Assembly (NCBI GenBank): GCA_003426165.1
Contig: QUAH01000006.1
Span: 134,685 to 198,684 of the forward strand
Reading direction: 5' to 3'
From: Candidatus Saccharicenans subterraneus
GTDB lineage: Bacteria; Acidobacteriota; Aminicenantia; Aminicenantales; Saccharicenantaceae
Length of the DNA: 64,000 nt
Shown here piece after piece: positions 47,505 through 64,000 of this stretch. The notes under the pieces are model-generated. The model saw only the letters and a list, made by a program, of their open reading frames with translations, searched no databases and had not been told where the DNA came from. How positions within the stretch are numbered: the stretch's first letter is position 1; every line of letters begins with the position of its first letter. The position numbers and the translations under genes were made by a program.

Positions 47505-47514
47505 GGATACCATC

Positions 47515-49728
47515 ATGATCGACGCAAAAACTCTGGCCGACCATAACCTGACCCGTGAAGAATACGAACTGATTGTCAAACTGATCGGTCGCGAACCCAA
47601 CCTGACGGAACTCGGCATATTTTCGGTGATGTGGTCCGAACACTGTGGCTACAAGAGTTCCCGGGTACACCTGAAAAAATTCCCGACCAGGGGAAAATAC
47701 CTGATCCAGGGCCCCGGAGAAAACGCCGGGGTCATGGACATCGGCGACGGCCTGGCTGTGGTTTTCAAGATTGAATCTCACAACCACCCTTCCTACATTG
47801 AACCCTACCAGGGTGCGGCGACCGGGGTCGGGGGCATCTTGCGGGACATCTTTACCATGGGGGCCAGGCCGGTGGCCGTGCTCGATTCCCTTCGTTTCGG
47901 TCCCCTCGACCAGCCCGAGAACCGGTCCATAATGGACGGTGTGGTCAGCGGAATATCCGGCTATGGAAATTCGTTCGGCGTGCCCACGGTCGGGGGCGAA
48001 GTTTATTTCAACGAGTGCTATGCCCAGAACCCGCTGGTTAATGTCTGCTGCGTGGGGCTGGCCCGGAAGGACAAACTTTTCCTGGCCAGGGCCCGGGGTG
48101 TGGGCAATGCCGTGATTTACGTCGGGGCCAGGACCGGGCGGGACGGCATTCACGGCGCTACCATGGCCTCGGCCGAGTTCGGTGAGGAAACCGAGCACAA
48201 GAGACCCAACGTTCAGGTGGGCGACCCCTTCAAGGAGAAGCTGCTGCTGGAAGCCTGCCTGGAAGCCATGGCCAGGGACCTGATCGTCGGGATCCAGGAC
48301 ATGGGCGCGGCCGGGCTGACCTGTTCCACCACTGAAATGGCAGCCAAGGCCGGGACCGGGATGGAAATCAACCTGGACCTGGTGCCCCAGCGTGAAGCCG
48401 GGATGAATCCTTACGAAATAATGCTCTCTGAATCCCAGGAACGAATGCTTATCGTGGCCGAACCGGATAAGGTTGAAGAGCTGAAGAAGATCTTCACCAA
48501 GTGGGACCTGGAAGCAGTGGTCATTGGAAAAGTAACGGATGATGAACGGCTCAAGGCCTATTTTCATGGCCAGCTGGTCATTGACATACCGGTTAAGGCA
48601 GTGGTTGACCTTTGCCCGGCCTACCGGCGGCCGGCCCGGACACCTGCCTTCCTGAGGAAGGTCACCAGGTTTCGCCTTCCCGAAATGCCCTCGGACCTCA
48701 ACCAGGTTTTTCTCCAGCTCCTGGCCTCACCCAACATCTCAGACAAAGAATGGGTTTTCCGGCAGTACGACCATATGGTCCAGGTTAATACCATGGTGCT
48801 GCCCGGGGCCGACGCCGCCGTGCTCAGGCTCAAGGGCTTGAAGAAGGGCCTGGCCATGACCCTCGACGGGAACTCTCTCTACACTTACCTTAATCCCAGG
48901 CGGGGCGGCCAGATTGCCGTGGCCGAAGCCTGCCGTAACCTGGCCTGCGCCGGGGCGACACCAATCGGGGTTACCAACTGCCTCAATTTTGGCAACCCGG
49001 AAAAACCAGAAATCATGTGGCAGTTCAAACAGGCGGTGGAAGGAATTGCCGAAGCCTGCCGCCGGTTCGAAATACCGGTTACCGGCGGAAACGTTAGCTT
49101 CTACAATGAAACTGAAGGCAAAGCCATCTATCCCACCCCGGTTCTGGGAATTATCGGACTGGTGGAAGACACCTCCCTGGTGCCCTCGGCTGGATTCCGT
49201 GGGGCCGGGGATGTAATTATTCTTCTGGGAGAAAACAAAGAGGAGCTGGGTGGCTCGGAATACCTTAGGCTCGTTTTTTCCGAAGAAAAAGGTCAGCCGC
49301 CGGCTCTCAATATCGAGAAGGAGAAAAGAGTTCAGGCATGCTGTCGACAGGCCATTCGCTCCGGGCTGGTCAGAACAGCCCACGACCTGTCTGAAGGCGG
49401 GCTGGCCGTGGCCCTGGCCGAATGTTCATTCAAGGGTCCGCGCCCGATAGGATTTCAGGTGAAGCTGGATGACCGGCTCAGGACCGATGCCCTGCTGTTC
49501 GGCGAAAGCCAGTCCAGAATCATCCTGGCCGCCAGAAAAGAGAAGGCCCGGAAAATTTTGGCTCTGGCCAAAAAGATGAAAGTAAAGGCCAGGATAATCG
49601 GAAGGACCGGCGGTCGGAAAATGGTCATCTGGCACCGGAAGAAAAAGGTTGTTGACCAGCCGCTGGAACTGGGCTACCGGGCCTGGAAAAACTCCATTCC
49701 TGACTATTTCAAGGTAAAGAAAACCTGA
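47515..49728 (+). CDS. purL: Phosphoribosylformylglycinamidine synthase subunit PurL
   Basis: [17 protein letters not shown]... AIR-synthase-related domains. 737 aa. Confidence 0.94.
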
Positions 49729-49737
49729 GGGGGAAAA

Positions 49738-50376
49738 ATGGAACAGGAAGTATTCCGAAGCCCTAGGAAAAGGGGCAGAGTGGCAGTATTGCTTTCTGGC
49801 CGCGGCTCCAACTTCAGGGCCATTCATGAAGCCATGCTGGCCGGAAAGATAAACGCCGACATTGTGCTGGTATTCAGCAACAAGGCCGAGGCCCCGGGGC
49901 TGCAGACAGCCAGGGAGAGAGGCCTGGAAACTCTTCATCTGGACCCCAAGAGTTTCCCCAGCAAAGAGGCCTACGATGCAGCCATAGTCGAAGAGTTGAA
50001 AAAACGTGAAGTTGACCTGGTCTGCCTGGCCGGTTACATGAAAATAATCACCCCGCTTTTCTGCCAGGCTTTCAGGAACCGGATCATGAACATCCATCCG
50101 GCGCTTCTACCTTCGTTTCCTGGACTTCATGCCCAGAAACAGGCCGTTGATTACGGGGTGCGTTATTCCGGGGCCACCGTCCACTTCGTCTGGGAAGAGG
50201 TGGATGCCGGACCCATCATCTTGCAGGCCGTGGTTCCGGTCCACCAGGATGATACCGAGGAGACCCTGGCCGAGAGAATCCTGGAATGGGAACACAAGAT
50301 ATACCCCGAGGCGGTGCGTCTTTATTTTGAAGGCAGGCTGGAAGTGCGGGGTCGCAAAGTCTACATCATGGACTGA
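49738..50376 (+). CDS. purN: Phosphoribosylglycinamide formyltransferase
   Basis: VAVLLSGRGSNFRAI...NIHPALLPSFPG... Confidence 0.9.
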   Translation: MEQEVFRSPRKRGRVAVLLSGRGSNFRAIHEAMLAGKINADIVLVFSNKAEAPGLQTARERGLETLHLDPKSFPSKEAYDAAIVEELKKREVDLVCLAGYMKIITPLFCQAFRNRIMNIHPALLPSFPGLHAQKQAVDYGVRYSGATVHFVWEEVDAGPIILQAVVPVHQDDTEETLAERILEWEHKIYPEAVRLYFEGRLEVRGRKVYIMD

Positions 50377-50514
50377 CCATACCTTTTATTATATAAGCGC
50401 AGGCCAGGCCGGCCCCGGACCACACCCCCCAGAAAAAAATCAGGCTTAAATCCCTTGAAATTCCCGTCATATTAGGTCATATTTATAGCTTCAAGACCAA
50501 TCGAGGTTGGCACG

Positions 50515-51747
50515 ATGTTCAAGCCTGTTGAAGAACAACTGAAGCTCCTCAAGAAGGGAGCGGTGGAAATCATCCAGGAAGAAGACCTGGTTCGCAAACT
50601 GGAAAGGTCCAGGAAGGAAAATCGGCCGCTCCGGGTTAAAGCCGGGTTTGACCCGACGGCACCCGATATTCACCTGGGACATACCGTCCTTCTCAGGAAG
50701 ATGAAGCACTTCCAGGAACTGGGGCATGAGGTCATCTTTCTGATCGGCGATTTCACCGGCCTGATCGGCGACCCCAGCGGCCGCTCGGCCACCAGGCCGG
50801 CCATGACCAGGGAGGAAATCAACCGGAATGCCGAGACCTACAAGCAGCAGGTTTTCAAGATACTCGACCCTCAAAAAACCATCATAGATTTTAATTCCCG
50901 CTGGCTGGGGGCGCTGTCCAGTTTTGACATCATCAGGCTCACTTCAAAATATACCGTGGCCAGGATCCTGGAGCGGGACGATTTCACCAAGAGGTTCAAG
51001 GCCGGGCTACCCATATCTGTGCACGAGCTCCTTTATCCTCTGATGCAGGCTTACGATTCGGTGGCCCTTCAGGCCGACGTGGAACTTGGCGGCACCGACC
51101 AGAAGTTCAACCTGCTGGTCGGCCGGGAAATCCAGAGGGAATACGGGCAGGAACCGCAGGTCATCCTGACCATGCCGCTGCTGGAAGGCCTGGACGGCGT
51201 GGAAAAGATGTCCAAGTCCCTGGGAAATTATGTCGGAATTAACGAACCACCCGAAGAAATTTTCGGCAAGTTGATGTCTATCTCCGACGAGCTGATGTAC
51301 CGTTACTACGAGCTTTTAACCGATGTGCCGACCGACCAGATCGAAGACTGGAAAAAACAGGCCAGGGAAGGCAGCCTCAACCCGCGCGACTTAAAAGCCG
51401 GCCTGGCCCGGATGGTCGTGGCTGATTTCTGGGGAGAAGAAGAAGGCCAGAGGGCAGCCGAAGAGTTCGACCGGATTTTCAAACATAAGGACCTGCCGAG
51501 CGAAATGGAAGAAAAGGTCGTCGAAACCTACGGTGAGCAAACCCAGCTGGAGCTGGTCGACCTGATGGTTAACCTGGGCATAGTTCCCTCCCGCGGCGAG
51601 GCCAAGCGGCTAATCCGCCAGGGTGGAGTCTACGTTGACGGCCAGCGGGTTGAAGACCTGGAACACAAACTGGATGCCAGCCGGACAGAACAGATCCTCA
51701 AGGTCGGCAAGAGGAAATTCTACCGGCTCAAGTTGCAACACAAATAA
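50515..51747 (+). CDS. tyrS: Tyrosine--tRNA ligase
   Basis: HIGH-type motif (HLGHTV). KMSKS. C-terminal S4 domain. Confidence 0.92.
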
Positions 51748-51886: not shown

Positions 51887-52324
51887 ATGAACTTGGATAA
51901 GGCTGCGGCTGTCATCGAAGTTGCCAGCGAGCTCGGAGAAATTGAAGCCATCAAGAATTTCCTGGACCAAAATCTCCAGGCCCTGCCGGTAACCGAGGAA
52001 GAACATTTCCAGATCGAGCTGGCCCTGATTGAAATCTGCCTCAACATAATCCATTACGCCTACCCTGAAAACAGGGGCACAATCCAGGTAAGATTCTGGA
52101 CCGAGGGACCGCAGGTTTTCCTGGAGATTAGAGATAGCGGCGTACCTTTCGACCCCTCACAGTCGCCTACCCCGGACATAGAAGAGATCATCCGCAAAAG
52201 AAAAAAGGGCGGGCTGGGCATTTACCTCAGCCGGGAGTTGATGGACGGATTTTCCTATCGCCGGGATGGCGGACAGAACATTCTGCTGATGCACAAAAGG
52301 TTGTCCGCGGCCGAGGCTAACTGA
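51887..52324 (+). CDS. Anti-sigma regulatory factor / Ser-protein kinase of the RsbW/SpoIIAB type (HATPase_c fold)
   Basis: 145 aa. N-box-like ELALIEICLNIIHYAY. G-box GGLGIYLSRELMDGF. Confidence 0.65.
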   Translation: MNLDKAAAVIEVASELGEIEAIKNFLDQNLQALPVTEEEHFQIELALIEICLNIIHYAYPENRGTIQVRFWTEGPQVFLEIRDSGVPFDPSQSPTPDIEEIIRKRKKGGLGIYLSRELMDGFSYRRDGGQNILLMHKRLSAAEAN

Positions 52325-53152
52325 TCAGTACAGGACCGCGGCCTCGCCCTTTTCCTGGATGAGCTTATCTATGGCCTGAAGGATGAGCTCCTTCCGGGCC
52401 AGGACGGCGTTGATCTCATCATCAGTCAGGTACTCTCCGACGATACCTTTAATTAACTCAAAATTCAGGGCTTTTATTTTTTCCACGAAGGCCCGGGGCA
52501 GCTCGCTCATCGGCTTCGGACCCTCCCGGTGTTTTTCGGAGTAAATCAGGTTCTGGGTGAATTTTTTCCCGGTGCGGAAAGACCGAGAATGGTCAATCAG
52601 TATCATCCGCCAGTCGGCGGTTATCAAGATGTTGTTCATGTGGCGGTCTTCGTTGCCGATCAGGTTGTCAAAGGCCCTCTGCAGGTAAACGGCCCGGTTC
52701 CAGTTCATCAGCTTGATGGGTGGAGTCTTGATATTTTTCTCGGTCTTTTGTTTTAGGGTCATCTGGTAGTCAACCCAGATCTGGCAGGAACCACGGTTGT
52801 TATGAAACCTTCTTTCCACCGTGGGCGGGACCATGTTCAATTCCAGGTAATTATCCATCAGGTAAGCCGCTATTTCGTATTTCCAGCCTTCCACGAAACC
52901 CTTCAGGCGGCCTTCCGGGTTCTTCCAGAGAGCATTCCTGGTGATCCCGTCCTTTTCCAGGGTCAGTTTCCAGGGGCTGGTGACGGACTCCGGGCCGATT
53001 AGCTGCTCTTCATTGACAATGTTGGCCGTCCGCAAAAATTCTTCCCACCTGGCTCGCTCGGCCACCTCGTCCGGCGTGAACTGAGGAAATAACGGCAGGA
53101 AAAGAAGCAAGGCCACCGAAACCACGAAAAAGCCATAAAACTTTCTTCCCAT
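52325..53152 (-). CDS. Secreted PI3/PI4-kinase-fold protein, type II PI4-kinase-like, paralog 1
   Basis: Signal peptide. ALWKNPEG (Lys region), YLMDNYLELNMVPPTV, GSCQIWVDY, catalytic loop IGNEDRHMNNIL and activation segment ILIDHSRSF align with PI4KII motifs (AVFKPKNEEP, LVDQKLELNIVPRT, GSFQLFVEGY, IRNTDRGNDNWLI, AIDNGLAF). GAGGAGGG RBS. Confidence 0.6.
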   Translation of the reverse strand: MGRKFYGFFVVSVALLLFLPLFPQFTPDEVAERARWEEFLRTANIVNEEQLIGPESVTSPWKLTLEKDGITRNALWKNPEGRLKGFVEGWKYEIAAYLMDNYLELNMVPPTVERRFHNNRGSCQIWVDYQMTLKQKTEKNIKTPPIKLMNWNRAVYLQRAFDNLIGNEDRHMNNILITADWRMILIDHSRSFRTGKKFTQNLIYSEKHREGPKPMSELPRAFVEKIKALNFELIKGIVGEYLTDDEINAVLARKELILQAIDKLIQEKGEAAVLY

Positions 53153-53161
53153 ATTCCCTCC

Positions 53162-53995
53162 TCAATAAAGGACCTTGCCCTCGCCCACGACTTTGATCAT
53201 CTCGTCTATTTCCTTAAGTATTAAATCTTTGCGGGCCAGGACGGCCCTGATTTCTTTATCGGTCAGGTATGGCCCAACGGCCTGTTTGATGCTGTCAAAG
53301 GTCAGGGCCTTGATATTCTCCACCAGTTGCCTAGGCAATTTTCTGAAAGGCAGGGCCCGGCTATCAGCTCTTAACGGGTTTAGACCGAACAGGAGGTGCT
53401 TGGTATATTTTTCTTCTGACCGGAAGCTCCGGGAGTGGTCGATTAGTATGGTCCTCCAGTCCTTGGTATATAAGGTATTTTGCTGGGTGCGGTCCTCGTT
53501 GGCGATCAGGGCATCAAACACCCGGGAAATATATTTTCTCTTCTCCCAGTTATCGGCTTCCGGCCCGCTCGATGGCAGGGGGATATTCTTTTCCATCACC
53601 TGCAGCAGGCTGTATTCTTTCTCCACCCAGAGTTGCAGGGAGCCTCTCTGGCCCCTGAATACCCTCTCCACCGTTGGCGGGATCATGTTCAAGCCCAGCA
53701 GCTTGTCCAGCCGGTAGGCGGCAATTTCATACTGCCAGCCCTCGAGGAAGCCGCCCTGAATTCCGCTGGGGTTCTTCCAGACTCCGCTTCTTTCAACATC
53801 ACCTTTTTTGAGGAAAAGGCGAACCGGCTTGGTTACCCCCTCACCTATCTCTTTATAATCTATTATCTCCGCGGTCAGCAGAAATTCTTCCAGTTCCTCC
53901 CTCTGAGCTATTTCTTCTGGCCTAAACTGTGAAGACAGGGGCAGGTTCAGAACCAAGAGCAATAAACCAACGGCCAAAATCGCACTCTTTCTCAT
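53162..53995 (-). CDS. Secreted PI3/PI4-kinase-fold protein, type II PI4-kinase-like, paralog 2
   Basis: Signal peptide. GVWKNPSG, YRLDKLLGLNMIPPTV, GSLQLWVE, IANEDRTQQNTL, ILIDHSRSF. AAGGAG RBS. Confidence 0.6.
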   Translation of the reverse strand: MRKSAILAVGLLLLVLNLPLSSQFRPEEIAQREELEEFLLTAEIIDYKEIGEGVTKPVRLFLKKGDVERSGVWKNPSGIQGGFLEGWQYEIAAYRLDKLLGLNMIPPTVERVFRGQRGSLQLWVEKEYSLLQVMEKNIPLPSSGPEADNWEKRKYISRVFDALIANEDRTQQNTLYTKDWRTILIDHSRSFRSEEKYTKHLLFGLNPLRADSRALPFRKLPRQLVENIKALTFDSIKQAVGPYLTDKEIRAVLARKDLILKEIDEMIKVVGEGKVLY

Positions 53996-54007
53996 TTCCC
54001 CGACTCC

Positions 54008-54853
54008 TTAATATAAGACTTCCCCCCGGCCATAGGCAGAAATCATCTCCTCGATTTCCTTCAGGATCAGGTCGCGGCGGGCCAGCACAGAATTTATCTC
54101 CCTGGTGGTCAGATAGGAACCCACCGCCTGCCTGATGCTATCAAAGGTCAGGGCCTTCAATCTTTCCACAAATTCGGCTGGCAATCGTTTGAACGGCAGT
54201 GGAATTCCGCCCGGGCGCAGGGGCCGCAGCCCGTACATAAGGTTGTTAGTAAAACGGGCATCGGACCTGAAACTGCGGGAGTGGTCAATAAGTATGGTCC
54301 GCCAGTCTTCAGTGAGCAGGGTATTCTGCAGGCTCCGGTCTTCGTTGGCAATCAGAGAATCAAAGGCCCGGGTCAGATACTGCATCCTTTCCAGGTTAAC
54401 CGCCTCCCACCCCTCCTTTGGCAACTGGATTTTATTATCGACAATTTCCAGAAGGTCGTACTTGTGTTCCACCCAGAGCTGTAAAGAGCCGCGCTGACCC
54501 TGGAACCTCCTTTCCACCGTGGGCGGGATGAGGTTTAAGCCAAGCAACTTATCCAGGCGGTAGGCGGCAATTTCATACTGCCAGCCCTCGTAGTAACCGT
54601 TGATTACTCCGCTCGGGTTCTTCCAGACGGCAGTCAGCTCTGTATCTCCCTTTTTCAAGTAAACCCGAATGGGCAGAGTGATGCCTTTGCCCAGGTCCCG
54701 AAAGCCGGTTATTCTCGCCTTCAGAAGGAATTCTTCCTGTTCGCCCCGCCGGGCTATTTCATCCGTTGTGAACTGGGCGCGGGAACTCGAAAATGACAAT
54801 AACAGAACAAAAGTGGCGGTTAGCAAGTTCCTGGCAGCCGTTTTTAACTGCAA
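54008..54853 (-). CDS. Secreted PI3/PI4-kinase-fold protein, type II PI4-kinase-like, paralog 3 (TTG start)
   Basis: Signal peptide. AVWKNPSG, YRLDKLLGLNLIPPTV, GSLQLWVE, IANEDRSLQNTL, ILIDHSRSF. GGGGA RBS before the TTG. Confidence 0.58.
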   Translation of the reverse strand: MQLKTAARNLLTATFVLLLSFSSSRAQFTTDEIARRGEQEEFLLKARITGFRDLGKGITLPIRVYLKKGDTELTAVWKNPSGVINGYYEGWQYEIAAYRLDKLLGLNLIPPTVERRFQGQRGSLQLWVEHKYDLLEIVDNKIQLPKEGWEAVNLERMQYLTRAFDSLIANEDRSLQNTLLTEDWRTILIDHSRSFRSDARFTNNLMYGLRPLRPGGIPLPFKRLPAEFVERLKALTFDSIRQAVGSYLTTREINSVLARRDLILKEIEEMISAYGRGEVLY

Positions 54854-54973
54854 GGCTTTCCCCTTTGCTAATAGCCTAATATTTTTGCATTATTAAAGTC
54901 AAATTTAATATTTCATCTAAGGCCAGCAAAAATTTTAATTGATATGATAGAGTAGCTTCTGCTATAAACTGGG

Positions 54974-55837
54974 GTGAAAGAGGGCGAACCAATGAAAAAA
55001 CTGTTACTTCTGCTTTCGTTTCTGGTATTTCTTTCTGGCTGTTCTTCTGACCGGTACGCTCCCACCATCCGCTTTCCTTACAAATGGCCGGGCACCCCGG
55101 GTTTTGGCGGCAATATCGATCAGCAAAACATACCCGAGCCTTCGGGTCTGTGCTTCCATCCGCAGCGAAAGACTCTATTTGTGGTCAGCGACGAGGGCTG
55201 GCTTTACGAAATAACAACTGACGGAGCTCCAATTTTCAGCCAGCGGATTCCGGGCGACCTGGAAGCCATTGCCATCAACCCCAGGACGGGCCTGGTTTAC
55301 GTTGTAATTGAAGGAGATGATATCATCCTTGAATATGACCCGGATCGGCACGAGGTTACCCGTAGATTCCCGGTCAACAGAGCCTTCAACGGCGACCTGA
55401 ACTTTCTGCAAAAACAGGTCGAGGAATACGACAACGGCCTGGAGGCGCTGGCTTTTGTCCCGGATGAAAAGCATCCCGAAGGCGGGACCTTTTATGCCGG
55501 GAACCAATGGGACCCGCCCTGTATAGTTGAAATCGAAGTCCCCCTGAAATCAAGCCAGGCCCGGGAGGCCGAAGCCAGAATTATCAGGGTCCTGCCTTTC
55601 AAAATAGACGACCCCGCAGCCATGATTTACGACGAGGAAACCAGGCTTCTGCATATAGGCAGCGATGCCGATAATATCCTGGTTGAGATAACACTCGACG
55701 GGAAACTGGTAAGAGAATACGCCTTTCCAGGCGATAACCAGGAAGGTCTGGCCTGGGATGATAAGGGATACCTTTATATAGCGCAGGACTCAGGGGGCAT
55801 AATAAAAATCCAGGACCTGAGGAAAAAACGATCCTGA
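54974..55837 (+). CDS. YjiK / SdiA-regulated-family beta-propeller lipoprotein
   Basis: Lipobox LSGC. EPSGLCFHP..KTLFVVSDEG, DLEAIAIN, NGLEALAFVP, EGLAWDDKGYLYIA repeats resembling the YjiK family. Confidence 0.5.
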   Translation: MKEGEPMKKLLLLLSFLVFLSGCSSDRYAPTIRFPYKWPGTPGFGGNIDQQNIPEPSGLCFHPQRKTLFVVSDEGWLYEITTDGAPIFSQRIPGDLEAIAINPRTGLVYVVIEGDDIILEYDPDRHEVTRRFPVNRAFNGDLNFLQKQVEEYDNGLEALAFVPDEKHPEGGTFYAGNQWDPPCIVEIEVPLKSSQAREAEARIIRVLPFKIDDPAAMIYDEETRLLHIGSDADNILVEITLDGKLVREYAFPGDNQEGLAWDDKGYLYIAQDSGGIIKIQDLRKKRS

Positions 55838-55870
55838 TATTAAGGTCTTGGAAAGATCCGGAAACCTGGT

Positions 55871-57274
55871 TCAGGACCTTTCCGACTGTGTCCTTGCCCT
55901 CAGTTTTTTATATTCGCGGATTATAAGAAAACACAGGGATATCCAGATCAACACTCCCAGGATATTAACCCGGGCGAACTTTTCCACGCCAAAGGCCAGG
56001 TAAGTCGTGCCCAGAAAAATTCCCAGGGCGGCAATCACATCCCCTCCCCTGACAAAAAAGGTGTCGATGGCCGCCTTGGCTTTATATTTTTCTTCCCTGG
56101 AAGTAATCAGAAAGAGGGCATGCTTGGTGGTGTTCATCAGCGAATAGTCGGTGCCGTTTTCCAGGGCCTTAACCCACTTGATCAAAAGGAGTGAGGCCCC
56201 GACCGCGATAAACCCATAACCACCCAGGGCGATAAAAGGAAAAATAAGAAGAGCCCCGCCCACGCCAATCCACCTGAAAATCCGCGAAACCAGAAAAAGC
56301 TGCAGCACCAGGGCAATCAGGTTGGTCAGCAACTGGTACTCGGCAAAAAATTTCCCTATATATTCTTTCAAATCCAGGCCGCCGGCCAGGCCCGCCGCCA
56401 CGGCCTGGGTGGCCGTTCGGGTTACCACGTTGCTCAGTATGTATTCTCCGGTGGCATTTATGAAATTATAAAGACCGATGACCAGGGCAATCAATAGAAG
56501 GTAGCGGCTCTTGAAAACCAGGCGGAACCCCCCGCCTTTTTTGAGTGGCTTTTCCTGTTCAATTTTCTTTTGCTCCAGCTCGACCGGGGACAGCCCCACC
56601 CTCACGATATGTTGCAACTCTCTCTTGTGAATATGAATGGCCAGCAGGATGCATAAGCCCAGAATGGCGGCCGAAACCAGCATCAGGCTGTAAAGGCCAA
56701 TGGGCCTGATCAACCAGCCTGCTAACCGGCTGCCGAAAACGGCCCCGGAAGTAGCCCCGAAAGCAATCAATGGAAACAGCCTCCGGCCTTCCTCATCAGA
56801 ATACAGGTCGTTGGCAAAACCCCAGAACTGGGCCGGAACCAGCAGGTTATAGATTCCGATCCAGATGAAAAAGATGATGCCCATAGTTCCGAGAGGAATG
56901 CCCACCATACTTAGAATATAGAAAATTATCAGGTTGGAGATAAAGAACAGAGTTACCCAGGTTATCAACAGATGTCTGGGAACCCGGGAAGCCAGGTAGC
57001 TGAAGGCTTTAATCACCAGTATAAGCAAAATGGCCTGGGCTCCGGCCAGGTAACTTTTTATTTCCGCCCCTTTGCCGGCCAGAATCAGCGCGTCCCGGAC
57101 GGGTTTGATTATGTAATAGGCCAGCAGCAACAGGAAGATATTAAAGGTCAGCAGCAAGGCCTTGGAAGCCTCTCCCGGCCTGATATCGGTAAAGAGCCTG
57201 AGCAGCCGGTAACCGGGAGGGCAGGCTCGCTCAGAGTCACTTTTCTGTTTCGGGTCTGGGCCAACCTCTTTCAT
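55871..57274 (-). CDS. TLC-family nucleotide (ATP/ADP) translocase homolog, about 12 TM
   Basis: Polytopic membrane protein. N-terminal ...LLTFNIFLLLLAYYIIKPVRDALIL... Signature GTDYSLMNTTKHALFLITSREEKYKAKAAIDTFFVRGGD resembles the conserved KVKGKAAIDV region of Tlc/NTT transporters. Confidence 0.55.
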   Translation of the reverse strand: MKEVGPDPKQKSDSERACPPGYRLLRLFTDIRPGEASKALLLTFNIFLLLLAYYIIKPVRDALILAGKGAEIKSYLAGAQAILLILVIKAFSYLASRVPRHLLITWVTLFFISNLIIFYILSMVGIPLGTMGIIFFIWIGIYNLLVPAQFWGFANDLYSDEEGRRLFPLIAFGATSGAVFGSRLAGWLIRPIGLYSLMLVSAAILGLCILLAIHIHKRELQHIVRVGLSPVELEQKKIEQEKPLKKGGGFRLVFKSRYLLLIALVIGLYNFINATGEYILSNVVTRTATQAVAAGLAGGLDLKEYIGKFFAEYQLLTNLIALVLQLFLVSRIFRWIGVGGALLIFPFIALGGYGFIAVGASLLLIKWVKALENGTDYSLMNTTKHALFLITSREEKYKAKAAIDTFFVRGGDVIAALGIFLGTTYLAFGVEKFARVNILGVLIWISLCFLIIREYKKLRARTQSERS

Positions 57275-57285
57275 TTCTCCCCCTG

Positions 57286-58101
57286 TTAATTTTTCTTCCT
57301 GGTAAACAGGATGGCTTCCTCGCCCTGTTCTTCTATCAATTTCTTTATTGCGGCTATTATAAGATCCTTCCTTTCGAGCAACGCTTCTATTTCCTGTTCG
57401 CTAAGGTAAGGCTTGAGTTTGTTGGTCAGCAGCCCGGGGTCCAGCCGGCTCAGGCTGTTAAACAATTCCCTGGAGCACCTGCGGATTGGACAGTCCGTAA
57501 GCAGCTCCGGAACCGGGGCGAAACTTTCAGAAAAATCAATTCGCCAGACCTGCCAGGTGTTCATGCTTATCAGGATGTCGTCCTGGTCCAGGCACTGGTC
57601 ATAAACCAGATTCTCGAAAACCACCACTTCGGCCAGGGCCTGCTGGAAAGCTTCTTCATCCGGCGGATTCAGTCCTTTCCTCTGCCGCTGGGCTTCGGTT
57701 ATTACCCCGGTCAGCATGACCTGCAGGGAACCGCTGCGGCCATCCAGCTTTCTGACCACCACAGGCGGCATGAGCTCCAGGTCGAGCAGCTTATTCAGCT
57801 CATAAGCAGCCAGCTCATAGAAATAGCTGTCCGGGATCATGGCCGGTCGGGGCCGGTGGACGTACTTAAAAATGGCCCGCCCTTTCATCCGTCCATCATC
57901 CAGGCTGACAACCCAGGGAGCAGTCCGGCCGCCGGCCTGTCCCTTGCTGACCCTGACCACCCTGGCCTTACTCAGGAAATTCTCCAACTGTTCCCGCTCC
58001 TTCTGATCACCAAATAAGTAATCTGAGGCAACCATAAAAAACCCCCAGACCATGGCCATCATTACCAGCCCTGTCTTAAATAAATTTTTATTATTTTCCA
58101 T
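57286..58101 (-). CDS. Secreted/anchored PI3/PI4-kinase-fold protein, type II PI4-kinase-like, divergent paralog 4
   Basis: Shares N-terminal REQLENFL, AIFKYVHRP (Lys), YELNKLLDLELMPPVV, GSLQVMLTG and ...RIDFSESF with paralogs 1-3. The catalytic loop is degenerate (CLDQDDILISMN). Start placed at the internal ATG at 58101 with a GGGGGA RBS. The track start at 58134 would overlap the upstream gene by 44 nt. Confidence 0.5.
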   Translation of the reverse strand: MENNKNLFKTGLVMMAMVWGFFMVASDYLFGDQKEREQLENFLSKARVVRVSKGQAGGRTAPWVVSLDDGRMKGRAIFKYVHRPRPAMIPDSYFYELAAYELNKLLDLELMPPVVVRKLDGRSGSLQVMLTGVITEAQRQRKGLNPPDEEAFQQALAEVVVFENLVYDQCLDQDDILISMNTWQVWRIDFSESFAPVPELLTDCPIRRCSRELFNSLSRLDPGLLTNKLKPYLSEQEIEALLERKDLIIAAIKKLIEEQGEEAILFTRKKN

Positions 58102-59143
58102 GGTTAATCCCCCACAGGGAGAACTGGCCGTCATTTATGATCAGAGCCCTCATATGACCGCCGTAGGCCCGGGAGATTCCTGTATCAACGATCCAGATCT
58201 TCCCCCCGAATCTTCTCATATCATTGATGGTCAGGACCAGGCGAGGAGTATGGGCCACTATGATCTGCCTGGCCTCCAGGTTATTCAGGATACGGTCAAC
58301 CTGTTCCTCTGAAACGCTGCCATTGGCCAGGGCCAGCTCCCGGTACCAGAGAGGCCCGTTGCTCCTGTAGACAATTTCCAGTTTCATATCAGTCGGAGGC
58401 GACAGGTTCAGAATCGCTTTCTGAAAGACCGAGAGTTCATACCGGAGCCTGTTGTTTATGTCTTCAAGTTTCCACTTTGAGAATTCTTCGCTTATACCAC
58501 CGTGAACGAAGACGGTGTCATTAATCTTTATGACAGCATTCTTACGGGCAATCCATTTTCCGTATTTCTGGTTAAAATTGATCAGGTATTTTTGCCTGGC
58601 TTCCTGGTCAAAATCTATTACTTCCTGCCAGAGGCGTCTGATATCCCTCCCCCTCCTGGCCTTCTTTTCCAGCTCTTTCTGCTTCCTGGCCAGGTAATCC
58701 TCTGGAAGAAACGAGATAAACTGCTCAACGGTAACATAATCCTCATAATCGAAGGCGATCCCGGTGATGTTCATTTCTTCGTGATTGCCGATCAACATCT
58801 GCACCTGACCGCCGGCAGCTTCGGCCTCCGTTTCCAGCTTGCGAATTAAGTCAAAGATCTTGCGGGCATCGGGACCGCGGTCCAGGACATCTCCGGTCTG
58901 AACCAGAAAAGCCTGTCCACCCTTCCAGCTCAAGCTGGAATCAACCAGTCCTACCCCCTTCAGTATCTCGACAAAATGCTCGTAATCGCCGTGCAGGTCC
59001 CCGACCACCACGATCTTTTCCACCCCGCTCCAGCGGCAGGGAATTTGCTCGGCGGGAAGAACAGGCCGGGTCAGCCAGACCAGCCAAAGCAGTAAATAGA
59101 GAACCTTCTGGCCAGCCCTTTTTCTCTGGAAGATTTTATTCAT
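58091..59143 (-). CDS. Secreted PPP-family metallophosphatase (calcineurin-like / ApaH-like Ser/Thr phosphatase fold)
   Basis: Signal peptide. GDLHGD, GDVLDRG, GNHE signature triplet. Confidence 0.7.
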   Translation of the reverse strand: MNKIFQRKRAGQKVLYLLLWLVWLTRPVLPAEQIPCRWSGVEKIVVVGDLHGDYEHFVEILKGVGLVDSSLSWKGGQAFLVQTGDVLDRGPDARKIFDLIRKLETEAEAAGGQVQMLIGNHEEMNITGIAFDYEDYVTVEQFISFLPEDYLARKQKELEKKARRGRDIRRLWQEVIDFDQEARQKYLINFNQKYGKWIARKNAVIKINDTVFVHGGISEEFSKWKLEDINNRLRYELSVFQKAILNLSPPTDMKLEIVYRSNGPLWYRELALANGSVSEEQVDRILNNLEARQIIVAHTPRLVLTINDMRRFGGKIWIVDTGISRAYGGHMRALIINDGQFSLWGINHGK

Positions 59144-59313
59144 GAAATCTCACCCGGGGTAACCATCATTGCCGCTTTCCCCTGTTCTTATCCTACTTTC
59201 TTCCTATACCTAAACGTCCTTAAAGTCAAATAAAATTCGTTGCTGCCGGGCAAAAAAATTATTTATTTTGCATAAAAAACATATTAGAATAAATTGTGGA
59301 AAGGGGAATTATC

Positions 59314-59607
59314 ATGATTGCCCGAGTAACTATTTTTCACGTCAAGCCAGAGAAGGTAGAAGAGGCCATCAAGCTTTACGAAACCAGCGTCATCCCGGAC
59401 GCCAAGAAGCAAAACGGCTTCGCCGGAGGATATCTCCTCACCGACCGGGCCAGTGGCCGGGGAATGTCCCTGACCTTCTGGCAAACCCAGGAAGACGTCA
59501 CGGCCAGCGAAGAGAACCTTCACTACCAGCAGCAGCTGCTCAAATTTCTGGAAATGTTTGCCTCTCCGCCCATCAAGGAACAATACGCCATCAGCCTTGA
59601 GTTTTAA
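59314..59607 (+). CDS. Small ABM/Dabb-like (dimeric alpha+beta barrel) protein
   Basis: 97 aa from the ATG at 59314 (AAGGGGAA RBS 5 nt upstream). MIARVTIFHVKPEKVEEA... pattern typical of antibiotic-biosynthesis-monooxygenase-like stress proteins. Confidence 0.4.
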   Translation: MIARVTIFHVKPEKVEEAIKLYETSVIPDAKKQNGFAGGYLLTDRASGRGMSLTFWQTQEDVTASEENLHYQQQLLKFLEMFASPPIKEQYAISLEF

Positions 59608-59685: not shown

Positions 59686-60033
59686 GTGAAAATATCAACC
59701 AGAGAAATTAACGACATTCTGATCGTCGACATCGAGGGAGAAATCAGGAGGTCAGACATCACCGACATGACCCTCCATCAATGGATCAAGCAGCAACTGG
59801 AAAGGGGCAAAAGGAAAATCTTGCTCAACTTCGAAAAGGTAGAATTCATCGACAGCTTCGGCGTGGGCGAAATCCTGGCCAGTTACATCTCGGCCAACAA
59901 CCTCGGCGGTAAGCTGAAGCTGGTCAGGATTTCCAAGAAGCTCTACCTGATCTTCCAGGTAACCATGCTGACCAGGGTGCTGGAAATATATGACGACGAA
60001 CAGGTGGCCCTGGAGAGCTTTTTCAAAGAGTGA
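59686..60033 (+). CDS. STAS-domain anti-sigma-factor antagonist (SpoIIAA/RsbV-like)
   Basis: 115 aa. ILIVDIEGEI..., conserved IDSFGVGEIL (phosphorylatable Ser region). Confidence 0.7.
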   Translation: MKISTREINDILIVDIEGEIRRSDITDMTLHQWIKQQLERGKRKILLNFEKVEFIDSFGVGEILASYISANNLGGKLKLVRISKKLYLIFQVTMLTRVLEIYDDEQVALESFFKE

Positions 60034-60061: not shown

Positions 60062-62539
60062 TTGACAGATGAACCCAGCCGGCTCCACGGGTTCCTTTCC
60101 CGCCTGGTGGAGATCAAGCCGGGAGAGGAAAGAATTACCCTTTTACTTTTCTTCTATTTTTTCCTGATCACTGCCGCCTACTCGATCATAAAATCCCTGA
60201 GGGTGGCCAGCTATCTGGACTCCCTGGGGGCTGATAAACTCCCCCTGGCCTATCTCCTGACCGCCGTGTCGATCGGCCTGGTGGTAGCCATTCATTCCAA
60301 ACTCCAGGCCAGCTTATCCAGGTTAAACCTTATAATTTTCAGCCTGGCCTTTTTCATCCTGACGGCGGTGTTATTCTGGCTGCTGTTCAGCCTCGGCTGG
60401 GCCTGGCTATCCCTGGCTTATTACATCTGGGCCAATATATTTCTGGCCGTGGTCATCACCCAGTTCTGGATAGTGGTCAACGATATTTTCAACCCCAGGG
60501 AAACCAAGCGCCTGGTGGGCCTTTTCGGAAGCGGCGGTATCCTGGGGGGCATCCTGGGAGGCGAAGCTACCGGACTCATGGCCAGGGCCAGTGTTGATAC
60601 CAGACTTCTTTTTCTGGCCTGCGGTTTTCTGCTTCTAACCATTGTTGTGGTCTACCTGATAGCTGACTGGCAAAAGAGATCGGGCCGGGGACCTTCTCAA
60701 GACTCCACAGAATCCACCCAACAGAACGGGAAGACCGAGCGGGTGGGATTCAGGGAGTGCCTGCGGACTGTTATCGGACAGCGTTACTTCCGGCTGCTGG
60801 CCGGCGGCATAGCCCTGAGCCTGATAGTCTCCACCTTTATCGACTGGCAGTTCAGCAAGGTGGTCGAAGGAACAGCCAGCCTTGGAGACAGACTGACCTC
60901 GTTCTTCGGGCATTTCAATGCCGGCCTGCTGGTGGTAGCCTTTTTCATTCAACTTTTCCTTACCAGCCGGTTTGTCCAGAAATTCGGGATCAGGTTTTCT
61001 TTCCTTATCTATCCTTCAGTCCTGATCATAGTTCTGACCGGGTTAACCGCGCTGCCAGCCAGCCTGCTGATGGCCCTGACTCTGAAGGCCTCTGATAAGA
61101 GTCTTTCCTATACCCTGAATCAATCCGTCAGGGAACTGCTCTACATCCCGGTTTCCCCCGAGGTCAAATACAAGGCCAAGATCTTCATTGACATGTTCCT
61201 CAACCGCTTTGCCAAGGGGCTGGGAGGGGTCCTGCTGATGGCCCTTCTCTACTTCAGCCTCAATCTTCGTTTTATCAGCCTGGTGACCATCCTGTTGATC
61301 CTGGGCTGGATGGCGGTCAATCTCCAGGTCACCAGGGAATACGCGGCCGTGGTCAGGAATAAATTAAAAAAGAAGTGGGACCGGGCCGAAAAGGCAGTGG
61401 CCGAGCAACTGGACCTGGACTACCTGAAACTGGCCTTTGACACCCTGGACACTCGCCGGCGAAGCCGGGAACTTCTGGCCATGGACATATTTGACCTCAT
61501 GAAGCAAGATAAACTCCGCCCTGAATTAAAAGAGCTGCTTACCTCAAACCTTTCTGAACCCGGGGTTTCCTCGCTCGGTACCCTGTTTGAAGAAGAAGCC
61601 CTGGCCCTGTCTGAATGGCCCGCGGGTGAGAACGAAGACCTCCTTAAAAAGGAAGTGGATGAAATTCTGTCCCTGGAAGCCTACCAGGAACTTATAAAGG
61701 AATATATCCGAAGAGTCGTGGCGGATAAGAAGCCCGGCACAGAAATTATGAGGATGGAAGCAGCCAAGCTCTTCAGCCTGATGCCAGCGAACTTCGTGCC
61801 GGCCGAGGAACTGGCCGAGTTACTCGGGGATGAATCGCCAGAGGTCAGCCGCCTGGCCATGGACAGCGCTGCCCGGTCCGGGCAGAAGGAACACCTAGAA
61901 ACCATCATCAGAAAACTGAAGGATCCGGTGACCAGAGAGGACGCCGTCTCGGCCCTTCTAACCTTCGGCTCCAAAATTACCGGCACTCTGTCGGATTACC
62001 TCGAAGTCGAGGAACTGGACCTTGAGGTCAAGAAGGCCATAATAAACGTTCTCTCGCGGATGGCCACCCAGGAAGCCGCCGACCTGCTGGCCCTCGAGCT
62101 TCAGAAAAATCAGCCGGAGCTTGATGGGGAACTGATTGAGGCCCTGGACAGGATTCATCATCTTAAACCCGAAATATCAATCCCGGCAGAAATCTCAAGG
62201 AAGAAATTAAAAGAGGAAATAGAGAGGCATTGTCAGCTATTGCTGGCAACGCTGGATAGCCAAGGGCCACTTGGGGAGGAAGCAGAAAAAGAGCTGGTCC
62301 GGTCCCAGTCGGATATTTTCAAATTACTCGGGTTTCTCTATCCCGGGGATGACATCAGCCGGGCCTGGCAGAATTTCCGGACCGGAACCAAAGACTCCAG
62401 AGCCTACGCCCTCGAACTCCTCGATAATATTCTGATTAAATCCGACCGGGAGATGGTTCTGCCGCTGCTGGAAGATCTGCCACCCTCGGACCGGTTAAAA
62501 AGAGTTCGAACCCTGCTTGATGAATTGGGAAAAACATAG
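60062..62539 (+). CDS. TLC-family nucleotide translocase homolog fused to C-terminal HEAT/PBS-lyase-like repeat domain (825 aa, TTG start)
   Basis: N-terminal 430 aa polytopic, with SDKSLSYTLNQSVRELLYIPVSPEVKYKAKIFIDMF (TLC signature region) paralogous to the 55871-57274 protein. The C-terminal 390 aa consist of repeated LLxDxxPxVRxxAxxAL-type alpha-helical repeats. Confidence 0.55.
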   Translation: MTDEPSRLHGFLSRLVEIKPGEERITLLLFFYFFLITAAYSIIKSLRVASYLDSLGADKLPLAYLLTAVSIGLVVAIHSKLQASLSRLNLIIFSLAFFILTAVLFWLLFSLGWAWLSLAYYIWANIFLAVVITQFWIVVNDIFNPRETKRLVGLFGSGGILGGILGGEATGLMARASVDTRLLFLACGFLLLTIVVVYLIADWQKRSGRGPSQDSTESTQQNGKTERVGFRECLRTVIGQRYFRLLAGGIALSLIVSTFIDWQFSKVVEGTASLGDRLTSFFGHFNAGLLVVAFFIQLFLTSRFVQKFGIRFSFLIYPSVLIIVLTGLTALPASLLMALTLKASDKSLSYTLNQSVRELLYIPVSPEVKYKAKIFIDMFLNRFAKGLGGVLLMALLYFSLNLRFISLVTILLILGWMAVNLQVTREYAAVVRNKLKKKWDRAEKAVAEQLDLDYLKLAFDTLDTRRRSRELLAMDIFDLMKQDKLRPELKELLTSNLSEPGVSSLGTLFEEEALALSEWPAGENEDLLKKEVDEILSLEAYQELIKEYIRRVVADKKPGTEIMRMEAAKLFSLMPANFVPAEELAELLGDESPEVSRLAMDSAARSGQKEHLETIIRKLKDPVTREDAVSALLTFGSKITGTLSDYLEVEELDLEVKKAIINVLSRMATQEAADLLALELQKNQPELDGELIEALDRIHHLKPEISIPAEISRKKLKEEIERHCQLLLATLDSQGPLGEEAEKELVRSQSDIFKLLGFLYPGDDISRAWQNFRTGTKDSRAYALELLDNILIKSDREMVLPLLEDLPPSDRLKRVRTLLDELGKT

Positions 62540-62548
62540 GCGTTGACA

Positions 62549-64000
62549 ATGAGCCAGAACAGAACATATCGCCTGCTATCTCGGCTGGTGGATATCAGAC
62601 CGGAAGAAGTCACCCCTTCTTTGCTGATGTTCTTTTATTTTTTTCTTATTCAGGTTTCTGCTTACATCATTGAGCCCGTAAAGATTTCACTTTACCTGAG
62701 ATGGCTGACCGCCGACCGCCTCCCCTATGCCTACCTGCTGTCGGCCCTGTTGATCGGGCTGGCCGTAGCCTTCAATTCCGAGTTACTCCAGAGAATCAGG
62801 AGATCATATTACCTGGCCTTTAGTCTGCTGTTTTTCATTTCGACCCTGATTCTCTTCTGGTTTCTCTTTCGGATTCACTGGCCCTGGCTGTCGCTGATCT
62901 ACTGGTTCTGGTCCGACCTGTTCATGGTTACCACCACCACCCAGTTCTGGATCATGGTCAATGACCTTTACCATCCGCACCAGGCCAAGCGACTCATTGG
63001 CTTCCTGGTCAGTGGTGGCCTGCTGGGAGGCGTGAGCGGAGCCCTGCTGGCCTCGCGCCTGGCCAGGCACCTCGGCACGGAAAATCTTCTTCTGATCTGC
63101 CCGGTTCTTCTGCTGTTCTGCCTGGTCATCATCTATTTTTATGCCAGGCTGCCAGGCAAGGAAGAGAAACAGTCCACCGCCTCTGGCGCCAGGAGCTCTC
63201 CCCTGGCCACCTGGCGGGAAATCCGGTCCAGCCGTTACCTGTCCCTTCTGGCGGCCATCGTAGCCCTGGGCATGATCATAACCACCCTGGTGGACTTTCA
63301 GTTTGTTTCGGTAGTTGGTTCAAGATTTACCGAACAGGACGCCAGGACCTCTTTCCTGGGCAGTTTTCTGACAGTCCTTCTGGTTTTTTCCTATCTTCTT
63401 CACGTGACCATGACGACCAGGATTTTAAGGCAGTCCGGCCTCCGGCTGGCCCTGCTCATCGCTCCCGCTTTCCTGCTACTAAGCTCGCTGGCCATCTTCT
63501 TTGTTCCGGCCACCTATTTGATTTACTGGGCGGTCCTTATCAAAGGAACCGACAAGAGTCTAAGCTATTCACTCAACCAATCGGTCCGGGAATTACTTTA
63601 CGTCCCGGTCTCGCCGGAAATTAAGTACCGGGCCAAAGTTTTCATCGACATGTTTGTTTCCAAGTTTGCCAAGGGCTTTAGCTCCATCATTCTTCTGGTC
63701 GGTTTCACTCTTCTGCATTTCAACCTCAAGCAGATAAGCCTGGTTACCGTTGCCTTCATCATTCTCTGGTTTATGTTCAACCTGGAAATTGCCCGTGAAT
63801 ACGTTAATACCGTCAAGAAAAACTTAAAAATAAAATGGCAGGATGCCCACCTGGTTATCAATGAGAAGATCGACCTAGACCTGACCAAGCTGGTCTTTGA
63901 TACCCTGGAGAGCAAGAAGCGAAGCTCCGTTCTCTATGCCATGAACCTGATGAACCTGCTGAAGACCGAGAAATTGAGCCCTGAACTGAAAGAGATAATA
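62549..64000 (+). CDS. Second TLC-family translocase homolog (HEAT-fusion paralog), 3' end truncated by the window edge
   Basis: MSQNRTYRLLSRLVDIRPEEV... parallels the N-terminus of the preceding gene. TDKSLSYSLNQSVRELLYVPVSPEIKYRAKVFIDMF signature. No stop before the window end. Confidence 0.5.
   Translation, partial: MSQNRTYRLLSRLVDIRPEEVTPSLLMFFYFFLIQVSAYIIEPVKISLYLRWLTADRLPYAYLLSALLIGLAVAFNSELLQRIRRSYYLAFSLLFFISTLILFWFLFRIHWPWLSLIYWFWSDLFMVTTTTQFWIMVNDLYHPHQAKRLIGFLVSGGLLGGVSGALLASRLARHLGTENLLLICPVLLLFCLVIIYFYARLPGKEEKQSTASGARSSPLATWREIRSSRYLSLLAAIVALGMIITTLVDFQFVSVVGSRFTEQDARTSFLGSFLTVLLVFSYLLHVTMTTRILRQSGLRLALLIAPAFLLLSSLAIFFVPATYLIYWAVLIKGTDKSLSYSLNQSVRELLYVPVSPEIKYRAKVFIDMFVSKFAKGFSSIILLVGFTLLHFNLKQISLVTVAFIILWFMFNLEIAREYVNTVKKNLKIKWQDAHLVINEKIDLDLTKLVFDTLESKKRSSVLYAMNLMNLLKTEKLSPELKEII

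Follow-up and report, generated by a model that had tools for sequence, protein, structure and literature searches.

The Fam20 kinases belong to the eukaryotic secretory pathway, where their luminal ATP is delivered by SLC35B1/AXER, an ATP/ADP exchanger of the endoplasmic reticulum (ER) and Golgi. We compared with this and other described systems a gene cluster from Candidatus Saccharicenans subterraneus, which lies in a stretch of 64,000 nucleotides (nt) of contig QUAH01000006.1 (hereafter the window, with positions counted from its first letter), and which encodes four kinase-fold paralogues (K1 to K4), a PPP-family metallophosphatase (PPP) and a homologue of the TLC/NTT nucleotide transporters (TLC). 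To our knowledge, periplasmic ATP-dependent kinases of proteins, glycans or lipids are not an established concept in bacteria. A 2020 review describes the route by which ATP reaches the periplasm as unknown, and Gram-negatives as thought to be without homologues of ATP/ADP translocases (PMC7432876). NTT and NTT-HEAT transporters are nonetheless widespread in free-living bacteria, with unknown function (PMC5381601). We found no functional account of NTT-HEAT in the open-access literature, nor any described bacterial system that combines a kinase, a PPP phosphatase and an ATP/ADP translocase, in agreement with a preliminary description of this DNA made from its letters alone.

Each part of the cluster resembles a known system, from which it also differs. 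The Fam20 family has been reviewed essentially in an animal context, and its pseudokinase Fam20A activates Fam20C (PMC7948968). The K proteins share only about 20% identity with Fam20, are half the size, lack the Fam20 disulfide pattern and fall below the Pfam Fam20C threshold; they are bacterial and carry Sec-type signal peptides, whereas Fam20 operates in the eukaryotic secretory pathway. Fam20A has lost the αC Glu, whereas K4 has lost the catalytic Asp. Unlike the Fam20 system, the K family has a dedicated PPP phosphatase that is fused or genetically coupled to it, and in place of the SLC35 supplier of ATP there is a transporter of the unrelated NTT/TLC family. PI4KIIα is cytosolic, palmitoylated and eukaryotic, and we identified no lipid-binding features in the K proteins. 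CtkA of Helicobacter pylori acts on host cells, without a transporter or phosphatase partner, and the SCO1664 family (TIGR03843) is actinobacterial, cytoplasmic and uncharacterised, with K scores far below its cutoff. The NTTs characterised so far bring host or cytosolic nucleotides into parasites and plastids. The NTT-HEAT and NTT-HEAT plus cNBD architectures that we found beside the cluster and its relatives are those of Major, Embley and Williams 2017, who reported no link of NTT-HEAT to secreted kinases or phosphatases (PMC5381601).

We propose that the cluster is a conserved module for phosphorylation outside the cytoplasm, a reading to which, as a whole explanation, we give an even chance. 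K1 to K3, K4 and PPP would be exported to the periplasm by the Sec pathway, and the inner-membrane NTT/TLC transporter and its NTT-HEAT paralogues would feed them nucleotide, in the likeliest mode by exchanging cytoplasmic ATP for periplasmic ADP. K1 to K3 would then transfer phosphate to a protein, glycan or lipid of the periplasm or envelope, and PPP would take it off again, with K4 as a non-catalytic partner that targets or regulates the phosphatase, or activates the kinases as Fam20A does Fam20C. Cytoplasmic regulators (STAS/RsbW/PP2C here, a cyclic nucleotide monophosphate (cNMP)-binding protein in other Acidobacteriota) would gate the transporter, and the extracytoplasmic phosphorylation state would hence track a cytoplasmic signal. 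We are confident that the kinase, PPP and transporter genes form one functional module, and regard the supply of ATP to the exported kinases by the transporter as evenly balanced between true and false. More tentatively, free-living diderms may possess a dedicated inner-membrane ATP route, made of NTT and NTT-HEAT transporters under the control of cyclic nucleotide or partner switching, that powers reversible periplasmic phosphorylation by Fam20/PI4KII-like secreted kinases, a pseudokinase and a PPP phosphatase, which would give NTT-HEAT its function. The linkage, seen in this uncultured sediment bacterium and in thousands of relatives among the Acidobacteriota, suggests that bacteria can deliver ATP beyond the cytoplasm for reversible phosphorylation and, if true, bacteria would have their own equivalent of the kinase system of the eukaryotic secretory pathway.

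Kinase-fold proteins, phosphatase and transporter

We read the open reading frames (ORFs) of the window from its sequence and computed spacings between ORF ends, and recovered the seven ORFs of the preliminary description, all with the coordinates and strands that it had assigned. The minus strand encodes, in order of transcription, PPP (58091-59143), a secreted metallophosphatase of the Shewanella type ('Shelph') of 350 amino acids (aa) with an N-terminal signal peptide; K4 (57286-58101), a kinase-fold paralogue without the catalytic Asp; and TLC (55871-57274), a 467-aa TLC/NTT-family nucleotide transporter homologue with no HEAT domain. Beyond a plus-strand lipoprotein gene follow K3 (54008-54853), K2 (53162-53995) and K1 (52325-53152), three secreted kinase-fold proteins with intact catalytic residues, of which K3 is a Saccharicenans-specific duplicate and K1 is the copy used for the structure model. 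The K4 start and the PPP stop overlap by 11 nt and an 11-nt gap separates K4 from TLC, as had been noted earlier; the gaps between K1 and K2 and between K2 and K3 are 9 and 12 nt. Overlooked until now were TLC-family genes at 60062-62539 and from 62549 to the window end, plus flanking STAS and RsbW-like genes, all of which co-vary with the cluster.

For K1 to K3, Pfam returned weak matches to PI3_PI4_kinase, Fam20C and HipA (HipA_2), and ABC1 is a further weak match among the kinase-like proteins. Against the PF00454 (PI3_PI4_kinase) cutoff of 27.1, K1 is borderline at 27.2, K2 reaches 17.5 and K3 15.9, and K4 has no match. The threshold of the Fam20 family PF06702 (26.8 bits) was missed at 17.6 and 18.3 bits, and all four paralogues match the SCO1664 family at 25-47 bits, far under its cutoff of 172.4. 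The K1 structure model has a bilobal kinase fold (predicted local distance difference test, pLDDT, 91), and its structural relatives are Fam20C (value 19.7), the xylosylkinase Fam20B (19.2), Caenorhabditis elegans Fam20 (18.8), PI4KIIα (18.1 and 17.5) and the H. pylori secreted kinase CtkA (15.2), with actin-fragmin kinase, HipA and CotH lower than CtkA. When a profile of the four paralogues was compared with the PDB, FAM20B, FAM20A and FAM20C came first. As modelled, the fold belongs to a Fam20/PI4KII/CtkA subgroup in which the Fam20 secretory-pathway kinases are at least as close as PI4KII, and the proteins are structural relatives, not members, of the Fam20 family (PF06702). The earlier label 'PI4K-type-II-like' therefore named the right fold subgroup and was too narrow, Fam20 being equally close or closer.

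Residue conservation was followed in 81 K1, 63 K2, 7 K3 and 54 K4 sequences. The ATP-binding Lys K77, N167, D169 and D187 are invariant in all 151 K1 to K3 sequences, and the αC Glu E93 is present in 150. Within the K2 alignment, K77, N167, D169, N174, D187 and H188 are invariant, with E93 in 62 and R170 in 61 of the 63 sequences. The catalytic loop of K1 to K3 reads NEDRxxxN (N-x-D-R...N) and the metal-binding Asp-His lies in IDHSRSF, the K3 motif being NEDRSLQN...IDHSRSF. The canonical Lys/Glu/D-x4-N/D set is complete in the sequences of K1 to K3, the putative catalytic members. K4, by contrast, is without the catalytic-loop Asp and Arg.

Elsewhere in the Acidobacteriota, a 5.1-Mb genome (CP070717.1, locus L084, 9313-10951) holds a single-domain member of the kinase-like family, divergently placed beside genes for an extracytoplasmic function (ECF) sigma factor and a Hanks-type Ser/Thr kinase, with no TLC gene near it at that locus.

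K4 is 27% identical to K1 (E 1e-27), and its catalytic loop reads YDQCLDQDD where K1 to K3 have NEDRxxxN. Across 54 K4 orthologues the position of D169 is Cys in 42 and otherwise Ser or Arg, and never Asp; the next residue is no longer Arg, and Phe has taken the place of the His that follows the metal-binding Asp. The same orthologues keep K77, E93 and D187 (the Lys, the Glu and the metal-binding Asp), and a conserved Asp, Asn or Glu stands two positions past the D169 site, where it might act as a shifted catalytic residue of an active kinase. Judged by these alignments, the K4 sequence is conserved and under selection, not in decay, and K4 is probably a nucleotide-binding pseudokinase or an atypical enzyme. 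It adjoins PPP in 42-43 of 48 species loci, usually with overlapping genes (median offset about -5 nt), and this constant translational coupling to PPP makes K4 probably a non-catalytic partner.

The secretion signals attributed earlier to the kinase paralogues and PPP are conserved across orthologues, as called by hydropathy and inspection. We identified a hydrophobic N-terminus in 78/80 K1, 61/62 K2, 50/51 PPP, 33/34 lipoprotein and 40/53 K4 sequences, and in 0/33 sequences of STAS, which served as a cytoplasmic control. In K1 and K2 orthologues an n-region and an h-region precede a conserved cleavage junction, A-x-A|Q-F-(T)-P-E-E, and the K3 signal peptide terminates in SRA|QF. It is highly probable from these features that the kinase-fold proteins and PPP are extracytoplasmic.

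TLC is a member of the NTT/TLC family, as had been proposed, and not an unrelated MFS transporter. It scores 60.4 bits for Pfam TLC (PF03219, TCDB 2.A.12; cutoff 21), with MFS_1 under threshold, and in a sequence search of the PDB NTT chains alone match. The NTT motifs FWGFAN..E..RR.FP and EEKYKAKAAID, which can be aligned with 9j3n and 9j3j, are shared by 38 TLC orthologues; TLC orthologues are publicly annotated as Npt1/Npt2 or ATP:ADP antiporter. With the TLC model (pLDDT 84), Foldseek ranks 1-4 are ATP-bound Chlamydia pneumoniae NTT1 and Arabidopsis AtNTT1 (E 1e-11 to 1e-8), at template modelling (TM) scores of 0.70-0.71 for ranks 1-3 and 0.56 for rank 4; generic MFS transporters start at E ~1e-7, a modest margin below the NTTs. 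By sequence, TLC and NTT-HEAT of the window are distant NTT subfamilies.

An epibiotic or intracellular lifestyle had been raised earlier as an alternative, with host or environmental ATP imported through the transporter and the secreted kinases acting on a host or partner cell. A version in which the bacterium steals ATP through the TLC proteins and secretes the kinases and phosphatase as effectors would match the classical role of TLC/NTT transporters, and CtkA, as a structurally related secreted kinase of H. pylori, would agree with it. This is hardly credible for the present cluster, and the suggestion is not supported. Complete chromosomes of related organisms are 4.1-4.3 Mb long and purL, purN, purS, purQ and purB adjoin the cluster; with genomes of ~4 Mb and adjacent purine biosynthesis genes, there is no need of the transporter for energy parasitism. 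The proteins carry ordinary Sec signal peptides only, metagenome-assembled genomes (MAGs) and metagenomes of soil and sediment Acidobacteriota contain the module in abundance, and free-living bacteria are known to carry NTT genes (PMC5381601).

PPP was correctly recognised as a metallophosphatase in the preliminary description. It scores 51.4 bits for Pfam Metallophos (cutoff 21.5) and has the motifs GDLHG at residue 48, GDVLDRG at 84 and GNHE at 119 (GDxHG, GDxxDRG, GNHE). The cold-active protein-tyrosine phosphatase of Shewanella (1v73/2z72) matches at E 6e-33, and PPP is like the Shelphs in having all metal-binding motifs and a similar length; it is unlike them in its link, by translational coupling or fusion, to a kinase-fold domain. 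NCBIfam adds weak matches to bis(5'-nucleosyl)-tetraphosphatases of the ApaH and PrpE types, with ApaH far under its cutoffs.

These last matches would fit a system for nucleotide scavenging, in which nucleotides from the environment, first processed or bound outside the cell by the exported PPP and kinase-fold proteins, are taken up by the transporter, as the PPP relatives ApaH and PrpE are Ap4A hydrolases; the closest characterised relative of PPP is, however, a protein-tyrosine phosphatase. Every characterised NTT is an importer, or an exchanger that brings nucleotides into the cell (PMC5381601), and the linkage data given below suit any shared nucleotide-related role. The intact phosphotransfer residues of the kinase fold would still require a nucleoside triphosphate donor outside the cytoplasm, and de novo purine genes are present. 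The cNBD and partner-switching regulators suit a gated supply better than nutrient uptake, although this argument is a weak one. We consider scavenging an unlikely explanation, if one to be taken seriously, and retain extracytoplasmic phosphorylation as the preferred reading.

Gene linkage, rearrangement and fusion

We scanned GTDB species genomes and obtained at least 80 loci, in which the window proteins were mapped by tblastn; presence was counted in the 48 species-level loci that extend 6.5 kb or more upstream of K1. The phosphatase-kinase-TLC gene order, first seen in this genome only, persists across Aminicenantes species, with K4 in 43, PPP in 42 and K2 in 37 of the 48 loci, the lipoprotein gene in 22, TLC inside the cluster in 29 (plus one inverted), NTT-HEAT in 29, and any TLC-family gene within the fetched locus in 38. 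Loci without the lipoprotein gene have the order PPP-K4-TLC-K2-K1, all co-directional. Protein identities drop to 42-60% across Aminicenantes loci, and the tyrS/purN flank is retained inside the genus only. As this flank is lost outside the genus, the persistence of the cluster is not residual synteny. The arrangement is far beyond chance, and recurs in dozens of species-level genomes.

Many public MAGs with the Aminicenantes-type locus go under other names, namely 'uncultured Eubacteriales', 'Hydrothermarchaeota archaeon', 'archaeon' or 'Terriglobales' (L006, L007, L009, L011, L012, L051, L079 and others). L009, labelled as an archaeon, equals L008 (Aminicenantia) in arrangement and identities, and such MAGs are probably mislabelled or contaminated bins.

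An exhaustive profile search for the kinase-like family returned 4,963 clusters (at 50% identity) with E ≤ 1e-3, and 763 with E ≤ 1e-30. Many of these clusters contain proteins of 600-900 aa, and the long forms are natural fusions in which a signal peptide is followed by a PPP domain and, past a linker, by a kinase domain. At E ≤ 1e-10 this fusion family numbers no fewer than 3,254 proteins, whose sources are Terriglobia, Acidiferrales, Thermoanaerobaculia and further Acidobacteriota. Members of the kinase-like family are annotated as 'hypothetical protein' and the fusions as 'metallophosphoesterase' only, and recognising the family would bring new annotations for thousands of genes of the Acidobacteriota, a phylum dominant in soil. 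In 45 fusions that we aligned, every PPP motif is kept, as is every residue of the catalytic loop and metal site, and a hydrophobic N-terminus is present in 44. One protein of 898 aa (P0142) has a signal peptide, a PPP domain, an Asp-less kinase-like domain (GNASRSESD) and, third, a kinase-like domain whose variant loop (NTDENLNN, LIDLTRAF) retains the Asp; this is the window order PPP, K4, K in a single polypeptide; another long member is a double kinase. The fusion proteins, like the compact three-gene operons, offer simple constructs for biochemistry.

We examined the surroundings of eight genes for fusions or double kinases. In two loci (L083, L092) the order is NTT-HEAT, cNMP-binding protein and fusion, with overlapping genes; in L090 a single NTT-HEAT-cNBD gene is followed by the fusion; in L085 and L091 the fusion precedes NTT-HEAT; and in L088 NTT-HEAT and cNBD genes are followed, further on, by PPP and the double kinase. 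No transporter gene occurs within 8 kb of the fusion in L086 or within 7 kb in L089. NTT-HEAT(-cNBD) is thus adjacent in 6/8 contexts, in four of them overlapping or within ~30 nt. A metagenome scan with the fusion alignment produced 80 further loci, 44 of which have a TLC-family gene within 4.5 kb; when at least 3 kb was available on both sides the fraction was 16/20. At least three gene orders occur in the metagenomes: PPP, NTT-HEAT, K; K, PPP, NTT-HEAT; and fusions. The transporter link is thus frequent, not obligatory.

A skeptic may hold that the genes have no functional link and are neighbours merely through inherited gene order, since the evidence is all comparative and TLC within the cluster is absent in ~40% of Aminicenantes loci. 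Gene fusions exist, however, and the surrounding synteny is lost, with adjacency kept through at least three gene orders and across Acidobacteriota classes; given a few TLC-family genes in a genome of about 4 Mb, chance adjacency within a few kb would by our estimate be a few percent or less, against the 75-80% observed. Inherited order is accordingly very improbable as the sole cause. The fusions, the tight operons and a linkage that survives rearrangement across classes make a functional connection of transporter, phosphatase and kinase very likely.

Several points weigh against extracytoplasmic phosphorylation by ATP as the function of this module. The sole kinase-like gene in the transporter's own operon of the window is the Asp-less K4, and the shortfall of TLC just given is paralleled by the lack of any TLC-family gene in ~20% of the well-flanked metagenome loci and in 2/8 fusion contexts. 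Among the 45 fusions, the β3 Lys (K77) is Arg in 39 and His in five, a change that usually cripples canonical kinases. TLC is ~19% identical to characterised NTTs, so that its substrate could differ, and the TIGR00769 equivalog cutoff of 387 is missed by both TLC (61 bits) and NTT-HEAT (55 bits). Signal peptides were called by inspection and hydropathy, not by SignalP. Finally, ATP in a periplasm would be open to attack by phosphatases and might escape through porins, as is generally known (compare the 2020 review introduced above).

In the same 45 fusions (P0187, P0166, P0192 and 42 others), most members retain a Lys in the strand before it (LLEKDG). By analogy with the WNK kinases, this Lys might replace the β3 Lys.

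The substitution of the β3 Lys by Arg or His in the fusion clade, and of the catalytic Asp by Cys in K4, may alternatively point to another chemistry, in which the transporter brings NAD+, GTP, UTP or similar, the kinase-fold proteins catalyse AMPylation or nucleotidylation, and PPP reverses or trims the product. There are precedents both for the transport, as some NTTs carry NAD+ or other nucleotides (PMC5381601), and for the catalysis, as the 'pseudokinases' SelO and SidJ perform AMPylation or glutamylation (cited in PMC7948968), and the transporter is very divergent. K1 to K3, on the other side, hold the full canonical set of residues and their nearest structural relatives are true phosphotransferases, and we judge a chemistry other than phosphorylation to be improbable.

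Regulatory and neighbouring genes

An RsbW-like gene (51887-52324, plus strand) encodes a Ser kinase of the anti-sigma-factor type (HATPase_c_2, PF13581, 98 bits). It is convergent on K1 with zero gap in the window, and lies beside K1 in 34/48 loci. On the other side of the cluster, a plus-strand gene for a STAS-domain protein resembling anti-sigma antagonists (59686-60033; STAS 48 bits, TIGR00377 62.8 bits, above cutoff) ends 28 nt upstream of NTT-HEAT 1 (60062-62539, plus strand; TLC 68.7 bits, HEAT_2). This transporter of 825 aa has a TLC-family membrane domain followed by a C-terminal HEAT-repeat domain, and is 29% identical to the in-cluster TLC (E 2e-28). A second NTT-HEAT gene begins 9 nt after the first (62549-64000, plus strand); it is partial, its frame remaining open from 62549 past the window end, and it is 43% identical to NTT-HEAT 1 over 498 aa. 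Tandem NTT-HEAT genes also occur in loci L081, L007, L038, L042, L043 and L052. The STAS/NTT-HEAT pair stays together, and switches side of the kinase cluster while remaining near it.

At locus L015 (10865-15934) we found STAS, NTT-HEAT, FHA-GAF-PP2C and RsbW genes in one operon, with no sigma factor and convergent on K1, and similar loci have the same arrangement. The STAS, HATPase_c_2 kinase and FHA-GAF-PP2C components are those of the RsbV/RsbW/RsbU system, from which this operon differs in having an NTT-HEAT transporter in place of the sigma factor, suggesting a partner-switching cascade with a nucleotide transporter as its output. The window holds the STAS and RsbW-like genes of the full STAS, HATPase_c_2 and PP2C set present in L015. 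A PP2C-like gene adjoins NTT-HEAT in 19 loci; none was found in the 64-kb window, where it probably lies beyond the 3' end. Other Acidobacteriota have a cNMP-binding protein or domain at the equivalent position. A small ORF with an ABM domain, similar to antibiotic biosynthesis monooxygenases, between PPP and STAS (59296-59607, plus strand; Pfam ABM 26 bits) recurs there in 8-12 loci, and its membership of the cluster is uncertain.

The AT-rich intergenic region between K3 and the lipoprotein gene (54854-54973), from which the two genes diverge, is likely to be the promoter region of a K3-K2-K1 unit. Its one sigma-70-like match is weak and lies on the minus strand (54916-54889). Scans for promoters and terminators gave about as many matches as shuffled sequence (8 vs 6.1 expected, and 18 vs 12.8), with terminator-like matches falling inside coding regions, and were not used as evidence.

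The first 47 kb of the window contain no additional copies of the kinase-like, PPP or TLC cluster families. We additionally considered a defence system and rejected it, as, among the six proteins compared with PADLOC models, K1 gave two negligible matches and the remaining five gave none.

The lipoprotein gene (54974-55837, plus strand) is divergent from K3 by 120 nt and convergent with TLC by 33 nt, and is an optional member of the cluster. Its product is a predicted beta-propeller lipoprotein of the SdiA-regulated/YjiK-like, phytase-like type, matching PF06977 (44.8 bits) and PF13449 (48.1 bits) and having an LPAM_1 lipobox, and the earlier naming of it as YjiK-like was apt. It could be a kinase substrate or partner. 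Its 'phytase-like' label hints at inositol-phosphate chemistry, although Pfam uses this name generically and fewer than half of the loci have the gene.

Next to the cluster, at window positions 47515-51747, are the housekeeping genes purL, purN and tyrS, and long ORFs antisense to purL (for example 47488-48567, minus strand) look like artefacts of GC-rich sequence, and not genes.

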